A DNA stretch of 64,000 bases from assembly GCA_000004985.1 (NCBI GenBank), contig GG738853.1. One strand, given 5' to 3'. The stretch comes from Naegleria gruberi (lineage: Eukaryota). This document shows positions 17,915 to 53,637 of this stretch, in pieces (position 1 is the first letter of the stretch; the number at the start of each line of letters is the position of its first letter). Under the pieces are notes generated by a model. That model did not search any database. It saw only the letters and a list, made by a program, of their open reading frames with translations, and was not told where the DNA came from. A program made the position numbers and the translations under genes.

Positions 17915-18832
17915 TTACTTCTTGGTCTTCTTCTTCTTTGATTCGGTTTCTTCCTTATCTTCCTTTTCCTTTTCTTCTTCTTCCTTATCTTCCTTTTCTT
18001 CACCTTCCTTTTCATCAGCCTTTCTCTTCTTACCACCCTTCTTCTTCTTATGTCTTTGACCTGGCTTCAATGGTTTAGTAGTAGTTTCATCACCAGCCAA
18101 GAACTTGAGAATTCTCTTACACATAATCTTCTTGCTACCAGTCTTCTTCAAACCATTTTGCTTGGCAAATTCGACGAGTTCTTCAGCATAGAATTGATAC
18201 AAATCTTCAAAAGTGATACCTTCCTTGATCTTGGTAATATCATTCTTTTCTCTTTCTTCCTTTTCTGGAGTATTAGCTTCAAGGTAATGTGGATATGATT
18301 GACCGATAATTCTATTAACACAAGCCTTCTTGGTACCAGACTTTGAGATCTTCAAAGCATCACAGACATCATTGATGAATTCCTTAGCCATAGCAGTGAA
18401 ACCGAGCTTCAAACCAGTGATCAAGAGTTCTTCCATAACAGCATCAGCCTTTTCTTCCTTTGATGAATCTTCTTCCATACCCAAAGCAGCTAAGAATTTA
18501 GTCAACAATTCAAGAGAACATTCTTGGAAGTATTTAGCCTTATCCTTTTGCTTGGAAAAGTGAGACTTGAATGACTTGGCCAACTTTTGCTTAGATTCAG
18601 ATTCAACCTTCTTGTCCATTTCTTCCAAAGCCATCTTCAAAGCGTCCTTTTCCAATTCCTTGATGAAGGTGGATTCACCCTTCTTTTGAGCATGTTCGAG
18701 AATGGCTTCAACAGCGACCTTCTTGTTGGTCTTCTTTCCCTTGATGTCGTTACCATCCATATATTCCTTGAGGAGATTGAGTGGAATTTCTTCGAGGAGA
18801 GTTTCAATTTCTTTTGGTTCAGAGTCAGACAT
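17915..18832 (-). CDS. Nuclear protein with three SAP-like motifs and a Lys/Glu-rich tail
   Basis: 305 aa. Repeated helix-turn-helix-like segments (e.g. YQFYAEELVEFAKQNGLKKTGSKKIMCKRILKFL) fit the SAP motif L..L.V.EL...L...GL...G.K..L..RL. The C-terminus is KKKKGGKKRKADEKEGEEKEDKEEEE. Start ATG in an A-rich context (minus strand). Confidence 0.4.
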   Translation of the reverse strand: MSDSEPKEIETLLEEIPLNLLKEYMDGNDIKGKKTNKKVAVEAILEHAQKKGESTFIKELEKDALKMALEEMDKKVESESKQKLAKSFKSHFSKQKDKAKYFQECSLELLTKFLAALGMEEDSSKEEKADAVMEELLITGLKLGFTAMAKEFINDVCDALKISKSGTKKACVNRIIGQSYPHYLEANTPEKEEREKNDITKIKEGITFEDLYQFYAEELVEFAKQNGLKKTGSKKIMCKRILKFLAGDETTTKPLKPGQRHKKKKGGKKRKADEKEGEEKEDKEEEEKEKEDKEETESKKKKTKK

Positions 18833-19713: not shown

Positions 19714-21192
19714 TTAATGACAAACTCTTGGCTGAAAACTTGATAAGTTTCTACAGTCAAATGTCTTTACGTTTGTGTTCATCATAAAAATCGAGCTCTT
19801 TAACAAGGTATCACCAGCATCAGTAAAGTCATTGTAGGAAAGATCCAATGTCTTTAGAGCTGGGAAGGACAATTTGGCAAATGCTTTGATTCCAACATCT
19901 CCAATTAAATTTAAGCCAATCTCGAGAACTTCTAATCTAAAAAGATTTGAGCCTGTTTCATCATTTTCACTGGCGAGTCCTAATAACCCAGTGTCACAAA
20001 TTGCTGGCTTATTGGCATGTAAATTCAATCTTCTTAAATTTTGCAAATATTCTGATTGACCCAAAGCACAGGCACCTTCTGGTCCAATGACATTGTTTTG
20101 CAAGCCAAGAGAGGTCAAGTTTTTGATGAATGGATTATTGGCAAGAGTTTTGGCTCCAGCTTGATCAATTCCACATGAACCAAGTTTGAGAGATTTGATA
20201 TGTTTCAATATTTCACTTCCAACTAGGGCATTTCCTGCAGTGGAACCAATTTCATTTGAAGAAATATCCAATTTGGTCAAATTCTTTACATATTCAGTAT
20301 TAACTAGAGCTAGAGCACCTTCCTCTCCAATATAATTATATTCTACATTCAAAAGTTGTAAATCAGCCATATTTGGTGAATTTGCAATAGCAATCAATCC
20401 TTCATTTCCAATTCTTCCAGAGAATATTTCCAATTTTTTCAATTTGAATGCATTAACAATAGCTTTGGCTCCTTCGGCACCTATCTCACAATAACCCAGG
20501 TTAAGTTCTGTTAGATTTTTCATATTTGGACTGGAGCAAATGGATAATACACCTTCACTTGAGAAATTATTTGCATATACATCCAAAACTTTCAATTGTT
20601 TCAAATTCTCTGATTGGGCAATTAACATGAGTCCTTTATCTTTGATGCTATTTCCTCTTGCTTTCAAAACCTCTAAACTTGGTAAAGAGGATGAAATAAT
20701 TGACATGCTCTTATCATCTAGCTGATTGTAATTAATATTGAGCTCTTTCAATTTTGCAGAATATAATCCAGTAGTAATTCCACTAATATCACCTCCTTTC
20801 AATTGTGAATTATTAATGGTAATGGACTGTATAAAGCAATATTTCAACATGCCATTCGAAGTTTTGGATTTTAAATCTTTGGTAGAGGAAGCCCAAATTT
20901 GTGTCTTCAAACCACAAAACTGCAAAATAATAACTCGCCACTGCCGACACACTTTTGAATAACTTTTGATAAAGTCTTGAAACTCAGCTTCGGAATTGAT
21001 GAAGGAAAATATATGGAGACAAATATCGTTGGAAAATTTGTCATTCGTTGATACGGCCAAGTCTGATAAATCGGTGTGAGCGAGTTCTCTAGTTTGTTGT
21101 GATCCCATTTTTTTGAGGTTCTTTGTTATTGGCTTCAGATGATTGACATTTTGTAATCTTATACCAAGTTCGAAAAAAAGAACAAAATTCAT
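19714..21192 (-). CDS. F-box/LRR protein (RNI-like leucine-rich repeats)
   Basis: N-terminal DICLHIFSFINSEAEF..VCRQWRVII is F-box-like. It is followed by more than 12 RNI-type repeats of 24-28 aa (LNLGYCEIGAEGAKAIVN, LNVEYNYIGEEGALALVN). The real start is probably the internal Met (MGSQQTRELAH, about 21109). Confidence 0.7.
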   Translation of the reverse strand: MNFVLFFELGIRLQNVNHLKPITKNLKKMGSQQTRELAHTDLSDLAVSTNDKFSNDICLHIFSFINSEAEFQDFIKSYSKVCRQWRVIILQFCGLKTQIWASSTKDLKSKTSNGMLKYCFIQSITINNSQLKGGDISGITTGLYSAKLKELNINYNQLDDKSMSIISSSLPSLEVLKARGNSIKDKGLMLIAQSENLKQLKVLDVYANNFSSEGVLSICSSPNMKNLTELNLGYCEIGAEGAKAIVNAFKLKKLEIFSGRIGNEGLIAIANSPNMADLQLLNVEYNYIGEEGALALVNTEYVKNLTKLDISSNEIGSTAGNALVGSEILKHIKSLKLGSCGIDQAGAKTLANNPFIKNLTSLGLQNNVIGPEGACALGQSEYLQNLRRLNLHANKPAICDTGLLGLASENDETGSNLFRLEVLEIGLNLIGDVGIKAFAKLSFPALKTLDLSYNDFTDAGDTLLKSSIFMMNTNVKTFDCRNLSSFQPRVCH

Positions 21193-21282
21193 CAGGACTT
21201 ATTGAGCAAGACAACAAAAACAAAACACATCCTTGCCAAACAGCTGAATACTGATATGGTTAAATATTTAAGATAAATGTAA

Positions 21283-21354
21283 GGGACCATGGTCTAGTGG
21301 TATGATTCTCGCTTTGGGTGCGAGAGGCCGTGGGTTCGATTCCCACTGGTCCCC
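21283..21354 (+). tRNA. tRNA-Pro(TGG): tRNA-Pro (anticodon TGG)
   Basis: 72 nt. Acceptor GGGACCA/TGGTCCC. Anticodon arm CTCGC-TTTGGGT-GCGAG. T-arm GTGGGTTCGATTCCCAC. Its core is near-identical to the metazoan tRNA-Pro(TGG) as recalled from memory. Confidence 0.9.
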
Positions 21355-21807
21355 TTTCCTTTTAGTTGTTTTCCTCAAATTGTTTTTAAAGTGTTAAACA
21401 TATGTATGAATTGGTATTATTTTAATCTTTATTTAATTTGAACGACTACCTCAAAAACAAGACGCCATTTCATATGAAGCATGTTTGCTCCAATTACTCG
21501 TAACATCATAGATATTCATTGCTGCTACCAATTCGTCTTCATACAGAAATCCTGAACAAGAGAAGCATGCTCGTGGTGATTATCGTGATGCAGAGAATAA
21601 CAATGAATGGTTGTTTTGTCTCAATCTTTTTTGGTTTTTTTGAAATGAGTGGACATTTTAGGTCAGTGTTATCTTAATTGATTATCTTTATGGAACCTTG
21701 ATAGAATTGAACCAAAATTTCACCATAGAAACTATACATTCTATGAACAATAAGTATATGAGAATGATCATCATATCAAAACGATTAAGGGAGAAAGAGA
21801 CAAAATT

Positions 21808-21888
21808 TGCAGAAGGTGGGATTTGAACCCACGAAGCTTGCGCAGTAGAACTTGAGTCTACCCCCTTTGACCACTCGGGAACCCCTGC
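21808..21888 (-). tRNA. tRNA-Leu(CAA): tRNA-Leu (anticodon CAA), class II with long variable arm
   Basis: Reverse complement reads GCAGGGGTTCCCGAGTGGTCAAAGGGGGTAGACTCAAGTTCTACTGCGCAAGCTTCGTGGGTTCAAATCCCACCTTCTGCA. Anticodon loop CTCAAGT, long variable arm TGCGCAAGCTTCG, T-arm GTGGGTTCAAATCCCAC. The acceptor stem has two G-U pairs. Confidence 0.85.
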
Positions 21889-22591
21889 TTCACATTTAGA
21901 ATAACAACTGGTTTTTCACATTGAAATAGACTAAAAACTCATTTATCTTATTTTTTCTAATTAGAAAGGTTTTCAGTGCCTTCAACTGGAAACATGCTTC
22001 GCTGTAGGTTTCCTCGTTCATAGATGATTGCTGCATTCCTTACCAGCCATGGTTTGTGAATGGGGGATTTGTGAACATGCAGATTGGTACCTTAAACTTT
22101 TTATTAATTAATAGAAAAATCACGCCTTTTAGGCAAAATGAAAGATTCCAACCTTTTATAATCACTATTAACATTCTGTAGATTGTGTAGAGAGCATGAT
22201 AATTCAACATTTAGTTATCTTCATGCACTGTATTGGAGTATTAAAGAATAACTTACTGAACCAACAATCAATAGATTCGTTACTCACTGCTCATACATAA
22301 AGACTGTAGCAAGATTGTCACCATATTCCTAGCAGGCTTCCTGTCCATTAAAACTAAAAGAATATCAACAACTACTGTTTTCAAAATGATATTGGTTCAG
22401 ATTATCGTTTCCTTATTCAATATTAAGTTTTTCTTAAAATTGCTACTTCCAAATCATGCTACATGCCTCTTTTCGATTAAGCCAGTACTATTTCTTATTA
22501 AGCCACTCAACCAAATGCAACCTTTTAACCATTTGGTTTATCAATCATGATTTATTTGTTATTAAAATGCTTATTTTCTTAGTGATGTCAA

Positions 22592-23400
22592 TTATTTCAT
22601 TTCACTTATGTATTTAACTCCTTCATCACCACTTTGACTGTAACCAATATCAAGTGATGTTAATTGCTTCATTTTGCTAATGTATTTGTATCCTTCACCA
22701 CTAATTTCATTGGCAGAAATATCAAGTGATGTTAATTGTTTCATTTCACTTATGTATTTGGCTCCTTTATCACCAATTTGATTATTAGCAATATCGAGTG
22801 ATGTTAATTGTTTCATTTCACTTATGAATTTAACTCCTTCATCACCACTTTGATTGCTACCAATATTAAGTGATGTTAACTGTTTCATTTCACTTATGTA
22901 TTTAGCTCCTTCACCACTAATTTCATTGGCAGAAATATCAAGTGATGTTAATTGTTTCATTTCACTTATGTATTTGGCTCCTTCATCACCAATTTGGATT
23001 ATCACCAATATCGAGTGAGGTTAATTGTTTCATTTCACTTATGTATTTAACTCCTTTATCACCAATTTCATTGTAACCAATATTAAGCGATATCAATTGT
23101 TTCATTTCACTTATATATTTGGCTTCTTCATCACTAATTCGATTTACACCAATATTAAGTGATGTTAATTGTTTCATTTCACTTAGGTATTTGACACCTT
23201 CATTGCTAATTTCATTGTCATAAATATTGAGTGATGTTAATTGTTTCATTTCACTTATGTATTTGGCTCCTTTATCACCAATTTCATTTTCAGAAATGTT
23301 AAGTGATAGTAATTGTTTCATTTCACTTATATATTTAACTCCTTCTACACAAATTTGATTATTAGTAATATTGAGTGATGTTAATTGTTTCATTTCACTT
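22592..23400. repeat. Tandem array of about 11 near-identical 72-bp units (one LRR each)
   Basis: Unit tgtttcatttcacttatgtatttggctcct(t/c)(t/c)atcaccaatttgattattagcaatatcgagtgatgttaat, repeated head-to-tail with a few substitutions per copy. Confidence 0.85.
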
Positions 23401-23777
23401 ATAAATTTGGTCTGGTTGGTTTTTACTAAAGAGGCAAGCAACCAACGATAAACTTTAACCTTAACAATACTATTCAGGAATTGACTTTTCATGAATAATT
23501 CAACTCGTTTCTCTGTAAATTTTTTTTTAAATTGAATACCAAGTTTTGAGCGTTCCTTGATCACATTAAAGAATTGTTTTGAAATTAAAGAACAATTATT
23601 TAAAATAAACCACGAATCATCAAGCATGGAAATTATTTCAAAACAAACATCATCTGAAAATATTTCTTGTTGAAGTTTCACACTTTTTGATTTCTCTTCC
23701 ATAATATTGTTAATGAATATTTCCTCCGAATTAATGAATTGATGATTTTCTAAATCTTGTCGATTTCGTTTTCTCAT
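22592..23777 (-). pseudogene. F-box/LRR gene (ISEMKQLTSL-type 24-aa repeats) with a +1 frameshift; pseudogene or assembly error
   Basis: ORFs 22986..23777 (F-box DDVCFEIISMLDDSWFILNNCSLISKQFF plus LRRs) and 22592..23008 (more LRRs) overlap out of frame. The repeat unit at 22961..23033 is 73 nt, not 72, with one extra base in tttgGatt compared with sister units. This causes the shift. Confidence 0.5.
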
Positions 23778-23870
23778 TTTTTTATAAATATCATAAATTT
23801 ATGTGCAGAGTAATGTTGAGCTGATGTTATGATTATTTTCTTATTCAACATTCAGTTATTAAGGAAAGAA

Positions 23871-23991
23871 ATGGCTACGGCCATATCACGATGAATGCAC
23901 CTCATCCCGTCCGATTTGAGAAGTTAAGCATCGTAGAGCCACATCAGTACTGAGGTTGGAGACAACTTGGGAACCTGTGGTGCTGTAGTCT
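23871..23991 (+). rRNA. 5S: 5S ribosomal RNA, copy 1
   Basis: ATGGCTACGGCCATATCACGATGAATGCACCTCATCCCGTCCGATTTGAGAAGTTAAGCATCGTAGAGCCACATCAGTACTGAGGTTGGAGACAACTTGGGAACCTGTGGTGCTGTAGTCT followed by a T5 Pol III terminator. Matches the eukaryotic 5S consensus (CTACGGCCATA, GAAGTTAAGCA, AGTACT, TGGGAGAC-like, GGTGCTGTAG). Helix I pairs the 5' and 3' ends. Confidence 0.93.
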
Positions 23992-24245
23992 TTTTATCTT
24001 TATGGAGAGAATATTAGTTTGTAATTTTCAGAATAACATGATGGTGTTAATATTTCCTTTATTTTTAAATATTAAGGAAATGCCCATGAAAATACCATGA
24101 TTCATGGACAAGGATTTGATCTTGTGCTCTGGTCAACGGATTTGAAGCATGACTGAAATTAGAAAAGACTTTAAGGGTAACCTGTTCATGCTTAATAATA
24201 AAAAACGAAATCAATTAATGGACATGAATGGGAAACCTGGCATTC

Positions 24246-25190
24246 TCAAAAGATGCTCTTTCTATGAATGATATTGAATCCACTCTCTTCATATTCCTCT
24301 AAGGTTATACGCATCGATGGGAAGGTTGATAATTGGGAGAAAATACTACCACCAAGCCACGCAGTGTACTTTCTATCTGGTGGTGCTATTATTCGAATGT
24401 TCATTGAAGAATGAGATAATTCCCTCAATTCATTATCCAATCGTTCTACTATTCCATTGAACAATGTCGATCCTCCTGAAAGAATAATATTCGAATACAA
24501 TTCCTTTCTAATATCTAAATCCGACTTTCTAATAGAAGTGAAAATATTTTCATGAATTCCACCAACTTCCATTCCAATAAGATTTGGTTGAAATAATATC
24601 TCACTAGTTTTGTATCTTTCACTTCCAAGTGCAATTATATTTCCATCCGGTAATTCATATGAAATTTCTGATATTGTTTCTTCCAAAAAATTACTAGCAA
24701 CACAACCAGCGAAGCCTGGACCGAGGGGAAACCCTTGACCCGGGACGAGCCAGCTGTTTTTCAATATTGATTACCCGCATTAAGCGGGAAACCCTCGCAA
24801 GAGGAACCCCATACCTCAGAGACCCAAACGATTCATTCGTTTAGGCTCGAATCGAGTTCATAATGGCAAACGGATGGATAGCCAGTAGGTGGTGCAAACC
24901 AACGAACGCTTAATTAAATATATAATCCCATATCTTTTCCATGTGATCAAAGTCAGTAATCAAACCACGATCAATTGGATATTTGAAAACATTCACACCT
25001 CTCCTTCCCAATGCAATATCTCCAACGAATGTGTCAATGGAGCCCATTCCAACCATGATGGTGGATACTTTTTGTCATCCAGTAACTGTGGGAAAGACCA
25101 CACATGGAGCATCATCAATAAAACCAGCTTTCATGAGAGAGGAACCATTATCAATGATGAGAGGTGGATGTTCAGACATTTTTTTTTTGT
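24246..25190 (-). pseudogene. Actin pseudogene (nonsense mutation, internal deletion/insertion)
   Basis: The minus strand 25190..24913 encodes the actin N-terminus (MSEHPPLIIDNGSSLMKAGFIDDAPCVVFPTVTG*QKVSTIMVGMGSIDTFVGDIALGRRGVNVFKYPIDRGLITDFDHMEKIWDYIFN). An in-frame TGA (plus 25063-25065) sits where actin has Arg in VGRPRH (CGA->TGA), and the fragment then hits TAA. 24703..24246 encodes actin residues about 225-375 (YELPDGN..GGSTLFNGIVERL..IIAPPDRKYTAWLGGSIFSQLSTF..HRKSIF*). About 130 central residues are missing and replaced by a non-actin GC-rich segment. Confidence 0.8.
24704..24912 (+). other. GC-rich, hairpin-dense ~210-bp element replacing the middle of the actin pseudogene (candidate structured ncRNA or mobile-element remnant)
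   Basis: Local GC content is far above surroundings. Plus-strand hairpins: CCAG-cgaagc-CTGG, AGGG-GAAA-CCCT, CCCGC-attaa-GCGGG, CCTC-GCAA-GAGG (GNRA loops), AAACGA-ttcat-TCGTTT, CTCG-aat-CGAG. GAGTTCATAATGGCAAACGGATGG loosely resembles the RNase P/MRP CR-V region. Identity unknown. Confidence 0.35.
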
Positions 25191-25301
25191 AAACTTAGTG
25201 TTATATGGTTGGTTCATGCAACAACATGGTGAGTTAAGGGCGAACAAATACTGACAACAAAACCTAATTAAAACCTTGAAGCTGACTGATGTAAAAGGAA
25301 A

Positions 25302-25374
25302 CGCCCACCGTGGGGGTCGAACCCACGACCACAAGGTTAAGAGCCTTGCGCTCTACCGACTGAGCTAGACGGGC
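25302..25374 (-). tRNA. tRNA-Lys(CTT): tRNA-Lys (anticodon CTT)
   Basis: Reverse complement GCCCGTCTAGCTCAGTCGGTAGAGCGCAAGGCTCTTAACCTTGTGGTCGTGGGTTCGACCCCCACGGTGGGCG. Anticodon loop CTCTTAA. Near-identical to the eukaryotic tRNA-Lys(CTT) as recalled from memory. Confidence 0.9.
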
Positions 25375-25445
25375 TACATTGCTTAATAAATCGTTTCCTT
25401 AATAACGATTTCTATGGTAAAATTCAAGTTTACTATTGATTAATT

Positions 25446-26932
25446 TCAATGTTCTGCGATTCTACAATAATCAGATTTTGATACATCAACTGCAATTCCT
25501 ATTTTGTTGAATTCCTCTTCAATTTGTTGAATCACGATATCCCTATTCGGATTATTTTCAAGTTGAATATTATTATATCTCAAATCAACAAATTCTAACA
25601 ATGTGAATTCTTTTCTCTGTAATTGGATTTGCTCTGCAATAAATAGTGCATCATTTTCTGTTGTTGAACCTGATAATGATAAATCCAATACGCGAACTCT
25701 TTTTGCAATATTTGATTTCATAATAAGTGGTAAGAGTTGCGGAATATTATAAGTATTTCTCAGACCAAAATATTCTAATGTTGGATACTTTCCATTCTCT
25801 GATTCTGAAAGCAGTTCTGTTAAATTTTTTTCTGTAATATCATTTGTAATGTGACAGGTCGATCATTTTACTTCTTATTTGACAGGGTGACCCTAACCAT
25901 AATTCTAAATGTTTCAATTGTGGGAATGAGCAGTTAAGAATTGATTGTAACATGGAATTTTCCATTGCTCCTGTTCTTATAATTAATACTTTCAAGTTGT
26001 TCAATTTAACTGGCTCTTGAAAATCACAATATCCAGCTAGATAGAGAAATTTAAGATTTTTGAAATATTTTAGTATTGAGATAGAAGTATAACAGGAATT
26101 TCGTACATAATCATTGGTTGACTTGGTATTTTCTACATAAAATTTTTTCAAACTTGAAAGAAGAAGAATAAACTAACCTCGTATGGAAATAATATTATCC
26201 AACTCAATTGGTTCGTAAGCTTCCTGTTGTTCTATTATATAATTATTAAACGATTCATGAAAGTAATTAGAACTTGGATAGCTCAACGATAATTCTTCAA
26301 AAGTTTTCAATTTTTCAATAATGTCCTGTGTTTCCTTGACCAATTCAACTGCTGGTCTCATTTTCCCATCTCCTAGTTGTGCACTTTTCAATTCATTTTT
26401 AAAGAATTTTAATATATCCAATCTGTCTTTGATAATCTTTTTGATAATATTCAACAGTACTTGTTTTTCATTCTTAATACTAGTGCTGCGTTGATTCATT
26501 TTCTTAATTGATTCTTGCCACTTTTTTCTAATGCATTCCAATTTTTCATCTGTCATTCTCCCAGATTGCAAAAGCATTCTCACAATTACTGGATAACTCA
26601 TTATTTGCTGAACTGAAAGATACACAATTAAATAGTACTGGTAGTTGCACTGATGATAATGCAATTCTCTTATTAATAAATAAATCGTTATACATATTAA
26701 TAAAAAGAAATCTATTATTTGCAATCTTTCCATAATATTCCTTATTCAATAATAAACAACTTGTAATTGTTTTGTAATCCAAATACTGAAAAACAATATA
26801 ACAAATAATATCGGAGGAGAGATTTTTAAATGAAATGTTTGTAGGAGAGAGGAGAGCAAAATCGGGACAATTCTCGCTCCAATCATCACCACGATCAAAC
26901 GTATCATTGTGCTGATGATGGTGATTAAACAT
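25446..26932 (-). CDS. F-box/LRR protein, multi-exon (at least 4 short introns)
   Basis: Exon 1 26932..~26651 encodes the F-box DIICYIVFQYLDYKTITSCLLLNKEYYGKI. ORFs 26546..26932, 26173..26733, 25840..26151 and 25446..25721 join in frame by splicing. Minus-strand introns: about 26608..26650 (GTGCAA..TTCAG, 43 nt), 26133..26177 (GTTAGT..TATGTAG, 45 nt), 25832..25871 (GTAAAA..TTACAG, 40 nt). This gives ..SPCQIRKKNLTELL..YFGLRNT..KRVRVLDLSLSG.. (FBXL-type LRRs). Confidence 0.6.
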
Positions 26933-27071
26933 TTTTTTTGATTTTTGTAAAATTTGCTGAATTGGATTTCATAGCCTTAGAAACTCAAGTGTTGGTCATG
27001 TGAGCATCTAAGGTTTCAATTGGTTTTTAGAACTTGGAATTGGGCTGATATTTCACATTTTGAGGTAATGA

Positions 27072-27192
27072 ATGGCTACGGCCATATCACGATGAATGCA
27101 CCTCATCCCGTCCGATTTGAGAAGTTAAGCATCGTCGAGCCACATCAGTACTGAGGTTGGAGACAACTTGGGAACCTGTGGTGCTGTAGTCT
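27072..27192 (+). rRNA. 5S: 5S ribosomal RNA, copy 2
   Basis: Identical to copy 1 except one substitution (ATCGTCGAGCC versus ATCGTAGAGCC). Followed by the same CTTTTTATCTTTAT tail. Confidence 0.93.
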
Positions 27193-27376
27193 TTTTATCT
27201 TTATCTTTTGTTGACCGATTTCCATCTCAGCACTTTCAATATTTCCTTCCTCAATCCTTTGTAATGCTTGGGTTTTGTGGGTTTGAGCTTTCAAAGTCAA
27301 TTTTGTAATCGCACTTAAAGTTCACAAATGTTTTGAATGTTGAAGTTTGACAACACACAAAGCCAAGTACTAAAAA

Positions 27377-28819
27377 ATGCATATACTTTCCCTCTCGTTG
27401 GATATTTGGCAATTTTGTATTTTTGAATATTGGCTTGGTCCCATTAGTGAAGTGAAATTAGATTCGAATGAAAATATTCTAAAATTTAAACATTTTTTTT
27501 ATCCAAAAATAGTGAATGGTTTGGATTTGGAAACAATTAGAGCAGTTCATAAATTGTGTCATGTTACTAGTAAAAAATCTAGTCACTTATTCATGATTGA
27601 AATGCACGATTTTTGGAAAAAAGTTTCAAATGTATTAGAAATGGTCGTTTATTGGAAACGATATCAAACTTTTGAGGGATTTTCCTTAGCAGTTGGAGAC
27701 ATTACTGTTGATGAGTCAGTTGCCCAAGTTAAAATGCAAAAGCTCATTGAGGCAACTGAAATGAATTCCAACAGAGAATATAACCAAATTATTGACCCTT
27801 CCATGTGTGAAAAAAATTCCTACTACTTTGGTGTGGACTTGGATCTCATACCGAATGATTTTACTGACGGAGAAGTGAACACGTTATTTGAGGAAAGAGT
27901 TCAGAAATTAATGGTATCTGAATCTAAATTTGAAAAGATAAGAGCCATCACTCAATTGGAACCATACGACTTGTTTTTACATAAGGCATTGATCTTGGCG
28001 CTTGATATGGTTTCTTACTTTGATAGTGAGAGACACATGAGTTACAGTACTTATAATTGCTATGACACATTTGAAAAGTGTTGTCTCATTTCGAAAGGTT
28101 TATTTACGAGAAACATGTCGGATCGTTCTCTTGGTCTATTAATTGACTTGGAGAATGAAAGGGAGGAAACTGTGAATCTCTTTGAAAAATTAGAGCCGAT
28201 TTATGTGGCCATTTCAATTCATATCACTCCAGATCATTATCAACACTTTACAGCACCCAAACATGCTCAATTTTTATGTCTTGCTTTTGCACACTTTTTG
28301 AATGAAACACCATGTCCCTATGAAAATTTCCTTGAAGGTCAGGAATTTCCAAATGTTCGTGATTTAACCATCAAGATGCCACCAATTGAAAATAACTATT
28401 ATTTCAAAATTGACACCAAGCAAGTGGAGAAGAACATTCTTTCCTCAATAACGAGGAAGAGATTTCCAAAGTTATTAAGAATTTCAATACAAGGATGTTC
28501 CAGAATAGATAATCTTTTAGAATTGGAAATATTTTCAGAGTTGATGTATGTGGAAATTATTCCACAGAAAATGGGAGACGATTACAATTATATTCTCAAT
28601 TGGTCTGAAAGAAGAGTTCACAATTTTATTAATCATCAATTTATTGAGAAGGATTCTTCATTGATTCACCAATTGGTTGTCCATGCAAATATTGTTAGGA
28701 ATAGTGCTGATGCCAATTATGACAGCATTAAGGAATTTTATGACATGAGTAGAGGAAAATTTGTGCCGTGCATTTCACGTTCCTCAATTAATGAATATTA
28801 TGATAGATGTTATGAATAA
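27377..28819 (+). CDS. Hypothetical protein (480 aa)
   Basis: Long ORF with A-rich start context (ctaaaaaATGcat). No recognisable catalytic motif. C-terminal region weakly LRR-like (LRISIQGCSRIDNLLELEIFSEL). Confidence 0.4.
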   Translation: MHILSLSLDIWQFCIFEYWLGPISEVKLDSNENILKFKHFFYPKIVNGLDLETIRAVHKLCHVTSKKSSHLFMIEMHDFWKKVSNVLEMVVYWKRYQTFEGFSLAVGDITVDESVAQVKMQKLIEATEMNSNREYNQIIDPSMCEKNSYYFGVDLDLIPNDFTDGEVNTLFEERVQKLMVSESKFEKIRAITQLEPYDLFLHKALILALDMVSYFDSERHMSYSTYNCYDTFEKCCLISKGLFTRNMSDRSLGLLIDLENEREETVNLFEKLEPIYVAISIHITPDHYQHFTAPKHAQFLCLAFAHFLNETPCPYENFLEGQEFPNVRDLTIKMPPIENNYYFKIDTKQVEKNILSSITRKRFPKLLRISIQGCSRIDNLLELEIFSELMYVEIIPQKMGDDYNYILNWSERRVHNFINHQFIEKDSSLIHQLVVHANIVRNSADANYDSIKEFYDMSRGKFVPCISRSSINEYYDRCYE

Positions 28820-51407: not shown

Positions 51408-52508
51408 ATGGTTGTAGGAAATGATGAGGAAAAGTATAAGAGTTTGATATTCAACGCTTTCTGCAAATTCTTCACTCACCATTCTTTTCAAGAATTTAAT
51501 CTTCAAGGAAGAAGGAACTCGACTTCAATTCAACAACATTCATCTTTCCTGATCAACAATTACAACAACAATCAAAAAAAATACCTCACCTTCGCACAAC
51601 CTTTTGCTTGTTCGCCATCTGGTACTATTTTTTTTCACATGGAATTTATAGAACTTTCGGATGATAATTGTTTCGAAATAATTAGTTATTTGGATAATTG
51701 GTTTGTTTTGAAAAATTGCACACTCATTTCCAAGCAATGGTATGACGTGATTCGGTATCGTGTTTCGAATCTTTCCATTTCTTTTAGAAAGAAAATGGAC
51801 GAGGAAAGAGTTTCGAATATATGGAAGAGTGAATTTTTGAATTGCATTAGCAAGGTTCATGTCGGATGTTATGTTGGAAAGAGTTTCTTATTAGCCCTCC
51901 AGAAAATGAAAAATTTAACTTGGTTGGATATTCATTCGAATCAGATTGATTCTGAAGGAGCTCGATTAATTAGTCAAATTCAACAATTGAAATATCTGGA
52001 TATTGGATGCAATCAAATTGGGACGAAAGGAGCCGAATTTATGAGTGAAATGAAACAATTAACTTGCCTAAAAGTCAATAATAATCAACTGAAAGATGAG
52101 GCAATGCAATCAATTGGTCAATTGGAAAATTTAACACATCTTAATGTGAATGGAAATGAAATTCACTCAAATGGTGTTGAACACATTGTGAATTTGAAAC
52201 AATTGACTCGACTTGAAATGAATTGTAATGAAATTAGAAATCTTAATCCTGATTCGATTAGTCAACTTTCGAATTTGACCTATCTTGATATTTACAATAA
52301 TAATACAGGAAATTCGGCTGTGCAAGCAATTACAAGTCTGAAACAATTAACTTTCCTAAATATTGGTTACAATGGAGTTACTTGGTTTGGAGCTTTCTCA
52401 TTGAGCGAAATGAAACAATTGAAAAATCTTAAAATGAAAAGCAATTCAATTGGAAACGATGGACTAGAAGCTTTAAAAAGTTTAATATTTACACAAATTG
52501 AATTGTAA
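51408..52508 (+). CDS. F-box/LRR protein (MSEMKQLT-type repeats)
   Basis: F-box DDNCFEIISYLDNWFVLKNCTLISKQWYDVI, then 24-aa repeats (LDIHSNQIDSEGARLISQIQQLKY, LDIGCNQIGTKGAEFMSEMKQLTC ..). Paralogous to the 22592..23777 gene. The true start is probably the internal Met (MEFIELSDD, about 51639). Confidence 0.7.
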   Translation: MVVGNDEEKYKSLIFNAFCKFFTHHSFQEFNLQGRRNSTSIQQHSSFLINNYNNNQKKYLTFAQPFACSPSGTIFFHMEFIELSDDNCFEIISYLDNWFVLKNCTLISKQWYDVIRYRVSNLSISFRKKMDEERVSNIWKSEFLNCISKVHVGCYVGKSFLLALQKMKNLTWLDIHSNQIDSEGARLISQIQQLKYLDIGCNQIGTKGAEFMSEMKQLTCLKVNNNQLKDEAMQSIGQLENLTHLNVNGNEIHSNGVEHIVNLKQLTRLEMNCNEIRNLNPDSISQLSNLTYLDIYNNNTGNSAVQAITSLKQLTFLNIGYNGVTWFGAFSLSEMKQLKNLKMKSNSIGNDGLEALKSLIFTQIEL

Positions 52509-52602: not shown

Positions 52603-53637
52603 ATGCTAAAATCAATCACCACGTTTATCAAGAATAAAATTTCATATGATGATGATAATCAGCCCACTCGGAATGAAATTAAAGAAATTATTTTATTAGA
52701 AAAGAATTTAGAATTTGATTTTCTCCGATCGAATAATTCAAATGGTGATGATCAAGAAGTATCGTCATCATTAGTGAACATGAGGAATAATTCTGTTGAT
52801 AATCTATTGGAGAGTTATCTTCCCGATGAAATGATAATTCACATTTTACAATTTCTTCCAATTACTTGTTTGATAAATCTGGAACGAATTTCACAGAATT
52901 TCAGAAATTATTGGTGTCAATTACCTGAATTGTGGAAGAATCAATTGAATGGAAGGAATATAATGCCCTTCTTACCAATGAATTATGGATCAACAAGAAA
53001 ATACTACCAGAATCAGTTATATTTCGAACAGTTTTTTAAACCAAAATTGGTTAATTCATTTACAATTTTGAAAAAGAATGAAGTATCTTCAAATTTTGCC
53101 ACTCGTTGTTCTTTAATCCTGTTGGGGGATGGATTTTTACAAAAAAGATTCTTGCTACGTATCTGCTCTCTATTTAATTTATCAGCTAGTAAGGGAACAG
53201 TCAGATTTAAGGTAGATCCATATACGGATAATCATTGCATTGATATAATTACAAGTAATCCATGGGTTATCCATACTGCAAGACAGCAGCAAGCAAAAAT
53301 TGCTTGTTTTTGTTTCAATCTCAATGATTATGAATCATTTGTTCAATTTTTTAAATTTAGCTTTTTAAGTTGGAAAAAATCAAATGAACTAGAGGATGAA
53401 GTAATGGAACATTTAGAAAGGAATGAGAAATTTGTATTGATATTTGGATTTTTATCAGATAATGAGGAGGAAAAGGTTCCTCATGGAGAAATTTGTAAAT
53501 TCATTGAGGATAACTTTGGAAAATCATCAATTTCTCAATTACACTCTAACAGAGTGCAATATTTCAAAATCAATCCAGTCAGTGCTTCGATTGAGAATTT
53601 ACTATTTCCAATATTGTATGCCAGATGCTTACTCTAA
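52603..53637 (+). CDS. F-box protein with a degenerate GTPase-like C-terminal region (hypothetical)
   Basis: F-box LPDEMIIHILQFLPITCLINLERISQNFRNYW. Downstream LLGDGFLQKRFL and KIACFCFNLNDYESF vaguely recall Rho G1/G3 regions. The 3' end may splice (GTATGC.. about 37 nt) into the overlapping frame 53444..53707. Confidence 0.4.
   Translation: MLKSITTFIKNKISYDDDNQPTRNEIKEIILLEKNLEFDFLRSNNSNGDDQEVSSSLVNMRNNSVDNLLESYLPDEMIIHILQFLPITCLINLERISQNFRNYWCQLPELWKNQLNGRNIMPFLPMNYGSTRKYYQNQLYFEQFFKPKLVNSFTILKKNEVSSNFATRCSLILLGDGFLQKRFLLRICSLFNLSASKGTVRFKVDPYTDNHCIDIITSNPWVIHTARQQQAKIACFCFNLNDYESFVQFFKFSFLSWKKSNELEDEVMEHLERNEKFVLIFGFLSDNEEEKVPHGEICKFIEDNFGKSSISQLHSNRVQYFKINPVSASIENLLFPILYARCLL

Follow-up and report, generated by a model that had tools for sequence, protein, structure and literature searches.

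The subject of this study is a 64,000-nucleotide window of the Naegleria gruberi genome assembly (contig GG738853.1 of GCA_000004985.1), in which five genes of the RNA polymerase III (Pol III) type, three for transfer RNAs (tRNAs) and two for 5S ribosomal RNA (rRNA), lie within 6 kb around an actin-like pseudogene that is interrupted by a segment of 218 bp. With a probability of roughly 0.8 for the whole, I read this as a normal nuclear stretch of N. gruberi NEG-M, composed of independent Pol III units together with a captured fragment of the extrachromosomal ribosomal DNA (rDNA) plasmid in a broken actin gene. Naegleria rDNA lies on a circular plasmid of ~14 kb that is present at ~4000 copies per cell; it was reportedly described as a closed circular extrachromosomal rDNA element (CERE) by Clark and Cross in 1987, Maruyama and Nozaki in 2007, and Mullican and colleagues in 2018.

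The two parts of this reading differ in what they add. The Pol III gene island is already known and ordinary, since the dispersed arrangement of 5S genes unlinked to rDNA was published in 2012, with both loci of the window included, and the high number of tRNA genes (tDNAs) in 2010. A chromosomal CERE fragment seems unreported, as no report of one was found in the literature searched, and can be regarded as a modest, checkable curiosity.

The insert in the actin-like pseudogene

The actin-like gene survives as two collinear pieces on the same strand. The N-terminal piece (24912-25179, minus strand) matches the Pfam Actin model at positions 3-84 with an E-value of 2.2e-15 and comprises 89 codons from a start at 25179, with an in-frame TGA at codon 35. 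The C-terminal piece (24246-24693, minus strand; Pfam Actin positions 255-408, E-value 8e-49) is present in the NCBI collection as a 'predicted protein, partial' (P0012, 100% identity). Pfam positions 85-254 are absent and are replaced by the 218-bp segment at 24694-24911, which has a GC content of 52% as compared to 33-37% in its flanks. An earlier note, made from the letters of the window, had pointed out an actin pseudogene and an odd insert, and both do exist, as two Pfam Actin halves with a replacement between them.

One 24-mer from the insert was used to scan metagenome contigs, which led to five contigs (L001 to L005), and the whole insert was then compared with these rDNA contigs by blastn. 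It aligned in plus orientation, i.e. antisense to actin, and the identity was 98.6% over 218 nt for both L004 and L005, 95% for L002, 93% for L001, and 86% for L003. Over its core (24709-24911, 203 nt), the insert shows 100% identity with L004 and L005, and its three differences from these two contigs fall within its first 12 nt, which are variable among the plasmid contigs too. Rfam placed genes for the large subunit (LSU), 5.8S, and small subunit (SSU) rRNAs on L003 and L004, an SSU gene on L001, and the 5' end of an SSU gene on L005, while no rRNA gene was called on L002. Contig L004, with 14.4 kb, is an almost complete plasmid that is broken within the 5' part of the SSU gene.

The position of the matching element on these contigs is fixed. 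In L001, L003, and L005 the element ends at the same place in each, 50 nt before the 5' end of the SSU gene, and the 39 nt that separate it from a contig end (at an assembly break) in L002 and L004 agree with this location. The insert accordingly corresponds to approximately -267 to -50 upstream of 18S, that is, to the 5' external transcribed spacer (5' ETS) or to promoter-adjacent spacer. Because of the high identity to sequence that is linked to Naegleria-type rDNA, and because of the fixed pre-18S position, the insert is, as judged by alignment, a fragment of the CERE. Its right edge is set 50 nt before 18S, and its left edge coincides with the point where conservation among the plasmid contigs turns strong.

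The contigs themselves allowed a few further observations. GIR1 branching ribozymes (202 bits), which mark twin-ribozyme group I introns, were found in the SSU genes of L004 (14046-14242) and L001 (1326-1534), and the SSU gene of L003 is intron-less. Approximately 270 nt upstream of 18S are strongly conserved (86-100%) among the five Naegleria-type contigs, for example at 737-1003 in L005 and 7935-8195 in L003. The non-rDNA sequence of the plasmid is described as highly variable between species in the papers on CERE.

Within the window the insert stands alone: no second copy of it was found, and no other plasmid-like stretch besides 24694-24911. No Rfam family matched it even at E≤10, where noise matches fell outside the insert only, and no target-site duplication was found at its ends. 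A bacterial or viral origin was considered and rejected, as BLAST gave no match in bacterial plasmids or phages, and exact 24-mers were absent from the bacterial and archaeal genomes and the viral contigs that were scanned.

The plus strand of the insert folds better than shuffled sequences (z = -2.7), with GNRA-type hairpins that carry GAAA and GCAA tetraloops. In a consensus fold of the plasmid element, 1 of 59 pairs was compensatory, and the variation among the contigs is too little to judge structure by. The conserved pre-18S block may be a 5' ETS or a processing element on the plasmid, and a functional 5' ETS in that place would fit both the good fold and the high conservation. The copy on the chromosome is most likely non-functional filler.

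Five Pol III genes and the dispersal of 5S loci

tRNA genes were called with ARAGORN over the whole 64 kb, and Rfam at gathering thresholds served as a second, independent method. Exactly five Pol III genes were called, and both the ARAGORN and the covariance-model calls agree with the coordinates at which the earlier note had placed three tRNAs and two 5S genes within 6 kb; the covariance-model scan of the window recovered all five loci. ARAGORN and Rfam found no further tRNA, 5S, or any Rfam family elsewhere in the 64 kb, a permissive Rfam rescan of 20500-28000 at E≤0.1 returned no additional genes, and no rRNA other than 5S was called in the window by Rfam.

The gene for tRNA-Pro(TGG) lies at 21283-21354 on the plus strand (Rfam RF00005, 62.4 bits), 91 bp upstream of the ATG of a divergent leucine-rich repeat (LRR) and F-box-like gene (19714-21192, minus strand). 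It is convergent with the gene for tRNA-Leu(CAA) at 21808-21888 on the minus strand (48.7 bits), from which it is separated by 453 bp and which is 81 nt long owing to a long variable arm. The gene for tRNA-Lys(CTT) at 25302-25374, also on the minus strand (66.4 bits), is followed after 123 bp by the ATG of the actin-like pseudogene (25179) and lies 391 bp from the 218-bp insert. All three were called by ARAGORN as well as by Rfam.

Both 5S genes lie on the plus strand and cover the RF00001 model from 1 to 120 of 120, with scores far above the gathering score of 38: copy 1 at 23873-23991 reached 106.5 bits, and copy 2 at 27074-27192 reached 105.4 bits. Each copy has a divergent gene next to its 5' side: copy 1 precedes the ATG (23777) of an LRR gene at 22592-23777 by 95 bp, and copy 2 precedes the ATG (26932) of a gene at 25446-26932 by 141 bp. 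A single base separates the two copies, with A in copy 1 and C in copy 2 at position 63. Directly 3' of each is a T5 terminator (TCTTTTTATCTTTAT), so that the description of 5S genes sitting singly among protein genes, each with a T5 of its own, held at both loci.

The similarity between the two 5S loci is limited to 153 nt (23851-24003 and 27052-27204, repeat D2), which comprise the gene, ~22 nt upstream that are partly similar, and 12 nt downstream, and the flanks beyond are unrelated. No segmental duplication larger than the shared unit was found, and the neighbouring proteins are unrelated too. Duplication of larger segments is therefore not how the 5S copies were spread, and no sign of a retroelement was found here. 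In the proposed picture, five independent Pol III units would occupy short intergenic gaps between genes of RNA polymerase II, and each unit would be minimal, consisting of the gene with its internal promoter, ~20-35 nt of AT-rich sequence upstream, and a short T-run.

Both 5S loci can be found in a published catalogue. Feng et al. (2012, PLoS One 7:e36878, PMC3369914) listed 279 putative N. gruberi 5S genes and scored them in their Table 1 as 'Located with rDNA units: N'. Their Table S1 holds a pair on scaffold_9 at 151876 and 155077, which has the same spacing as the 5S genes of the window, 3201 bp, and whose coordinates minus 128,000 are 23876 and 27077. Owing to this exact spacing and offset, the window is very probably scaffold_9:128,001-192,000, with the island at ~149-155 kb, and copy 1 and copy 2 then carry the catalogue identifiers R33863 and R33858, respectively. 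The two genes are members of this catalogue and, being unlinked to rDNA and having a putative internal control region (ICR) and a T-run, show nothing different in kind; the dispersed arrangement that the earlier note offered as informative for the lineage had thus been recorded for these very loci.

I re-analysed the spacing of the loci in Table S1 of PMC3369914 and compared it with random placement, which was simulated 500 times. The 5S loci fall on 117 scaffolds with a median adjacent gap of 33.9 kb and a smallest gap of 462 bp. Gaps of 5 kb or less occur 32 times, where 9.5 are expected at random and 21 was the maximum in the simulations, and of the 162 adjacent gaps a single one is below 1 kb. 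The N. gruberi 5S family is dispersed, often in loose pairs 1-5 kb apart, and the pair in the window is one among ~32 of these. No head-to-tail 5S arrays were found in the Table S1 coordinates, nor in the window, where the two copies have a spacing of 3201 bp and their spacers are unrelated. Table 1 of the same paper scores 'tandem arrangement: Y', which is at odds with its own Table S1 coordinates.

The relation of 5S to the rDNA unit was examined on the plasmid side too. Naegleria rDNA plasmids are reported to carry only 18S, 5.8S, and 28S (PMC12482156, PMC5805870), and neither 5S nor tRNA genes were found on the Naegleria-type rDNA contigs L004 (14.4 kb) and L003 (8.2 kb), on which LSU, 5.8S, and SSU genes are present. 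Together with the 2012 catalogue (PMC3369914), this bears out the view that 5S is unlinked to rDNA in this organism, and the possibility that 5S resides only in the rDNA repeat, which the earlier note had named as a refutation, does not apply. A scan of viral contigs found no Naegleria 5S sequence, and no Pol III genes were found on the related metagenomic contig L006.

Comparisons with other eukaryotes place this arrangement among known ones. In Schizosaccharomyces pombe, Neurospora crassa, and Acanthamoeba castellanii, 5S genes are dispersed as single units, with a promoter and a terminator of their own, between protein genes, while the rDNA palindrome of Dictyostelium is an example of 5S on the same molecule as rDNA. 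N. gruberi shares the dispersed 5S with S. pombe but differs from these species in lineage, as it belongs to Discoba, and its ~280 copies exceed the number in S. pombe. The earlier note had called the arrangement informative for the lineage by way of a comparison with amoebozoans; this part did not survive, since N. gruberi belongs to Heterolobosea within Discoba and not to Amoebozoa, and a comparison with amoebozoans or Dictyostelium is an analogy only. The present analysis hence corrects the lineage to Heterolobosea, and it removes the retroelement explanation that is discussed below.

The genome of N. gruberi has a size of ~41 Mb. It contains 924 tDNAs (PMC2888827), and with the 279 5S genes added, 0.17 Pol III genes are expected per 5.9 kb. 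The Poisson probability of at least five is then ~1e-6 per window, and ~0.008 such windows are expected genome-wide, in an estimate that assumes uniform placement and concerns a window that was picked after the fact. Given this probability, the clustering of the five Pol III genes is not random and exceeds chance.

Proposed capture of a CERE fragment and alternative explanations

Break-repair capture of a CERE fragment is, as deduced from the arrangement of the locus, the most likely mechanism for the insert. A double-strand break would have occurred in the actin-like gene, ~500 bp of it would have been lost (the middle third, Pfam Actin 85-254), and the gap would have been filled during end joining by a 218-bp piece of the abundant CERE, as in the formation of nuclear mitochondrial DNA segments (NUMTs). 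Work on yeast and plants has established for NUMTs and their plastid counterparts (NUPTs) that organelle or extrachromosomal DNA is captured at chromosomal double-strand breaks. The likeness consists in a short piece of abundant extrachromosomal DNA within a gene deletion, with no target-site duplication and no mobile-element features, whereas the donor here is the nucleolar rDNA plasmid and not an organelle genome. In comparison with the CERE itself, the insert matches the region directly upstream of 18S, but it is only 218 bp long, is chromosomal, and is without rRNA-coding sequence.

Several points weigh against this reading of the locus or leave parts of it conditional. The transcription of the five Pol III genes is a prediction from their sequence, and the assignment of the donor as NEG-M's own CERE is similarly indirect, as the best matches, L004 and L005, come from environmental Naegleria; moreover, the SSU intron of L004 seems incompatible with the published N. 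gruberi EGB rDNA length of 5,855 bp. No 'empty site' was found, as a search of the protein database for an intact orthologue of the actin-like gene returned only the annotated partial protein itself and, as the next best match, a paralogue with 67% identity. No clear microhomology was found at the insert junctions. An assembly artefact retains a small probability. The placement on scaffold_9 also has an oddity, in that the source contig has 695,587 bp, which is less than a coordinate of 722,525 listed for scaffold_14, and this would be odd if the numbering of the Joint Genome Institute (JGI) scaffolds follows their size.

An assembly or cloning artefact, either a chimeric Sanger clone or a mis-join that placed plasmid DNA in scaffold_9, would be encouraged by the great abundance of CERE DNA (~4000 copies per cell), by the 100% identity of the insert core to plasmid sequence, and by the scaffold gap at 1-1348, which shows that this is a draft assembly. 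It is nevertheless unlikely because the flanks are collinear, same-strand halves of one actin-like gene on both sides of a segment that is short (218 bp) and internal. Furthermore, CERE and actin have no similarity that could mislead an assembler, and the three differences fall into the plasmid-variable part, as expected of NEG-M's own variant. There is very little probability that the 218-nt element exists as an independent unit on plasmid and chromosomes alike, for instance as a small RNA gene or a mobile element: the fold of the plus strand (z = -2.7) with its GAAA and GCAA tetraloop hairpins and the conservation of the block in five plasmid contigs (86-100%) would suit such a unit, but this conservation is expected of a 5' ETS or processing region, covariation is nearly nil (1 of 59 pairs), Rfam has no matching family even at E≤10, and an internal T5 on the plus strand would stop Pol III. 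An autonomous element would also not be expected as a single copy in the window, nor always at one place immediately before 18S in the plasmid contigs.

The surroundings of the insert suggested two further explanations. The earlier note had proposed that the island of tRNA and 5S genes is an integration hot spot for tRNA-targeting retroelements of the Dictyostelium TRE5, TRE3, or DGLT-A kind, with the pseudogene and the insert as debris, and the distance of these two from tRNA-Lys (123-680 bp) would agree with that; in addition, the N-terminus of the database protein P0007 looks RNase H-like by eye, which, if so, would put retroelement-derived sequence somewhere in the genome. Pfam was run on open reading frames (ORFs) of 150 aa or more that lie in the first 57 kb of the window and on the small intergenic ORFs around the tRNAs, and no reverse transcriptase, RNase H, integrase, endonuclease, or transposase domain was found in them. 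Nor did the island hold any sequences that resemble long terminal repeats (LTRs) or other dispersed repeats apart from the 5S unit and the coding repeats of LRR genes, and neither the ORF scan nor the repeat search returned TRE- or DGLT-like fragments near the tRNAs. As the insert is fully accounted for by rDNA-plasmid sequence and N. gruberi is not an amoebozoan, the hot-spot explanation has a close to negligible probability and was abandoned. What is shared with Dictyostelium is the setting only, in that both have tRNA genes in protist genomes that are compact and rich in AT; the organism is unrelated, and retroelement ORFs, LTRs, or repeats were not found near the Naegleria tRNAs. It is similarly hard to believe that a 5S gene and its divergent F-box or LRR gene form a functional or co-duplicated module, for which the location of both 5S genes 95-141 bp upstream of the ATG of a divergent repeat-protein gene could be taken as a sign. 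These are two cases only, the two neighbouring proteins are dissimilar (E = 15), and the DNA similarity extends only 22 nt beyond the 5' ends of the 5S genes and 12 nt beyond their 3' ends. F-box and LRR genes are also common in the window, with two of them at 51.4-53.6 kb that have no Pol III neighbour. Given these two genes without a Pol III neighbour (51408-52508 and 52603-53637) and the unrelated neighbouring proteins, the best explanation for the interleaving of 5S and F-box genes is that genes of this kind are abundant. The statement that the Pol III genes are interleaved with F-box genes stands in so far as LRR and other repeat-protein genes are the neighbours, and falls short in that the F-box label is supported by a sub-threshold match or by eye only.

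Returning to capture during break repair, a more far-reaching version would be a genuine germline transfer from the CERE to the chromosome in which the proximity to a tRNA gene (391 bp) within a dense Pol III cluster is no coincidence, with heavily transcribed Pol III genes acting as breakage sites at which abundant nucleolar DNA is captured. This version is speculative and rather improbable. A bolder variant would be that the fragment was copied from excised 5' ETS RNA.

Should the transfer be true, plasmid-to-chromosome exchange would occur in a genus that is described as strictly extrachromosomal for rDNA, and the insert, if real, would be a small 'molecular fossil' of the entry of CERE into chromosomes, with a bearing on the origin and maintenance of the plasmid-only state of rDNA. 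The rule that rRNA genes are exclusive to the plasmid still holds, because the insert is without rRNA-coding sequence. The fragment also matters in practice for quantitative PCR and metagenomic assays that take pre-18S sequence as plasmid-specific.

Short shared motifs and neighbouring protein genes

The terminators and trailers of the five Pol III genes look alike within each class. The two 5S copies share the trailer TTTTTATCTTTAT (23992-24003 and 27193-27204), which includes the T5. Among the tRNA genes, tRNA-Pro and tRNA-Lys have T-run trailers (TTTCCTTTT) that belong to one identical 10-mer, and the trailer of tRNA-Leu is TTTT. The identical 3' trailers of tRNA-Pro (21355-21364) and tRNA-Lys (25292-25301) read TTTCCTTTTA. 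The terminator context hence looks as if it was kept within each gene class, tRNA and 5S.

A putative internal control region of the 5S genes was located by eye, with a box A of the form N(G/C)(C/T)(C/T)AANC at positions 50-57 (AGTTAAGC) and an imperfect match only for box C (GAGGTTGGAGACAAC). Upstream, AATG is found within -10 to +1 of the mature 5' end in all five Pol III genes (within 21273-21283, 21888-21898, 23863-23873, 25374-25384, and 27064-27074), with a background chance of 0.064 per site, and any 4-mer common to five random sites turned up in 3 of 20,000 trials. AATG is accordingly a candidate initiator-proximal motif, from five genes only.

The AT-rich motif TTATTAAG occurs 10 times in the window, where 4.3 copies are expected, and 3 of the 10 lie no more than 35 nt upstream of Pol III genes (23856-23863, 25382-25389, and 25398-25405). 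An upstream 13-mer, GTTATTAAGGAAA, is common to 5S copy 1 and tRNA-Lys. Pol III genes of S. pombe need an upstream TATA element, and AT-rich TTATTAAG-like motifs are found upstream of the genes here. For N. gruberi 5S genes, an ICR and an upstream TATA box have been reported, and TFIIIA was not found in the genome (PMC3369914); the TTATTAAG/GTTATTAAGGAAA element may be the TATA-like element mentioned there. The short upstream motifs of these five genes could steer a genome-wide search for Pol III promoters in a species that is reported to be without TFIIIA. A 12-mer, AATATTTCCTT(T/C), is also found ~45-60 nt downstream of both 5S genes (~24048-24059 and ~27236-27247) in flanks that are otherwise unrelated, and it may be due to chance. 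A scan for bacterial promoters and terminators showed no enrichment and is not relevant to a eukaryote.

Among the neighbouring protein genes, the gene at 19714-21192 (minus strand) matches Pfam LRR_6 with an E-value of 1.2e-37 and has a sub-threshold F-box-like N-terminus (E = 0.001, 19.2 bits as compared to a cut-off of 24.3). The LRR-repeat gene at 22592-23777 (minus strand; Pfam LRR, repeat family D1) consists of two overlapping ORFs with coding repeats of 72 nt or 24 codons (SEMKQLTSL...), in which a +1 frameshift is visible as one 73-nt period near 22997, so that it is either a frameshifted pseudogene or affected by a sequencing error. A related LRR gene lies at 51408-52508 (plus strand). 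The gene at 25446-26932 (minus strand) is made up of four ORF pieces as a putative multi-exon gene, with introns placed by eye at GT..AG boundaries, weak matches to LRR_4 and LRR_At5g56370, and an N-terminus that is F-box-like by eye only.

Starting 185 bp downstream of 5S copy 2, the ORF at 27377-28819 (plus strand) belongs to an almost exclusively N. gruberi family, for which the homologue search returned eight database proteins (P0004 to P0011), seven of them from N. gruberi, with this gene included, and one from an ENA metagenome; none of the homologues returned could be assigned to another named species of Naegleria. The N-terminus of this gene (EIWQxCIFEYWLGP) is F-box-like by eye, and its paralogue P0007 carries the N-terminal extension that resembles RNase H by eye. 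Further upstream in the window, a run of N marks the scaffold gap at 1-1348, and the ORF at 17915-18832 (minus strand) matches XP_002680558.1 of N. gruberi NEG-M exactly along its entire length.

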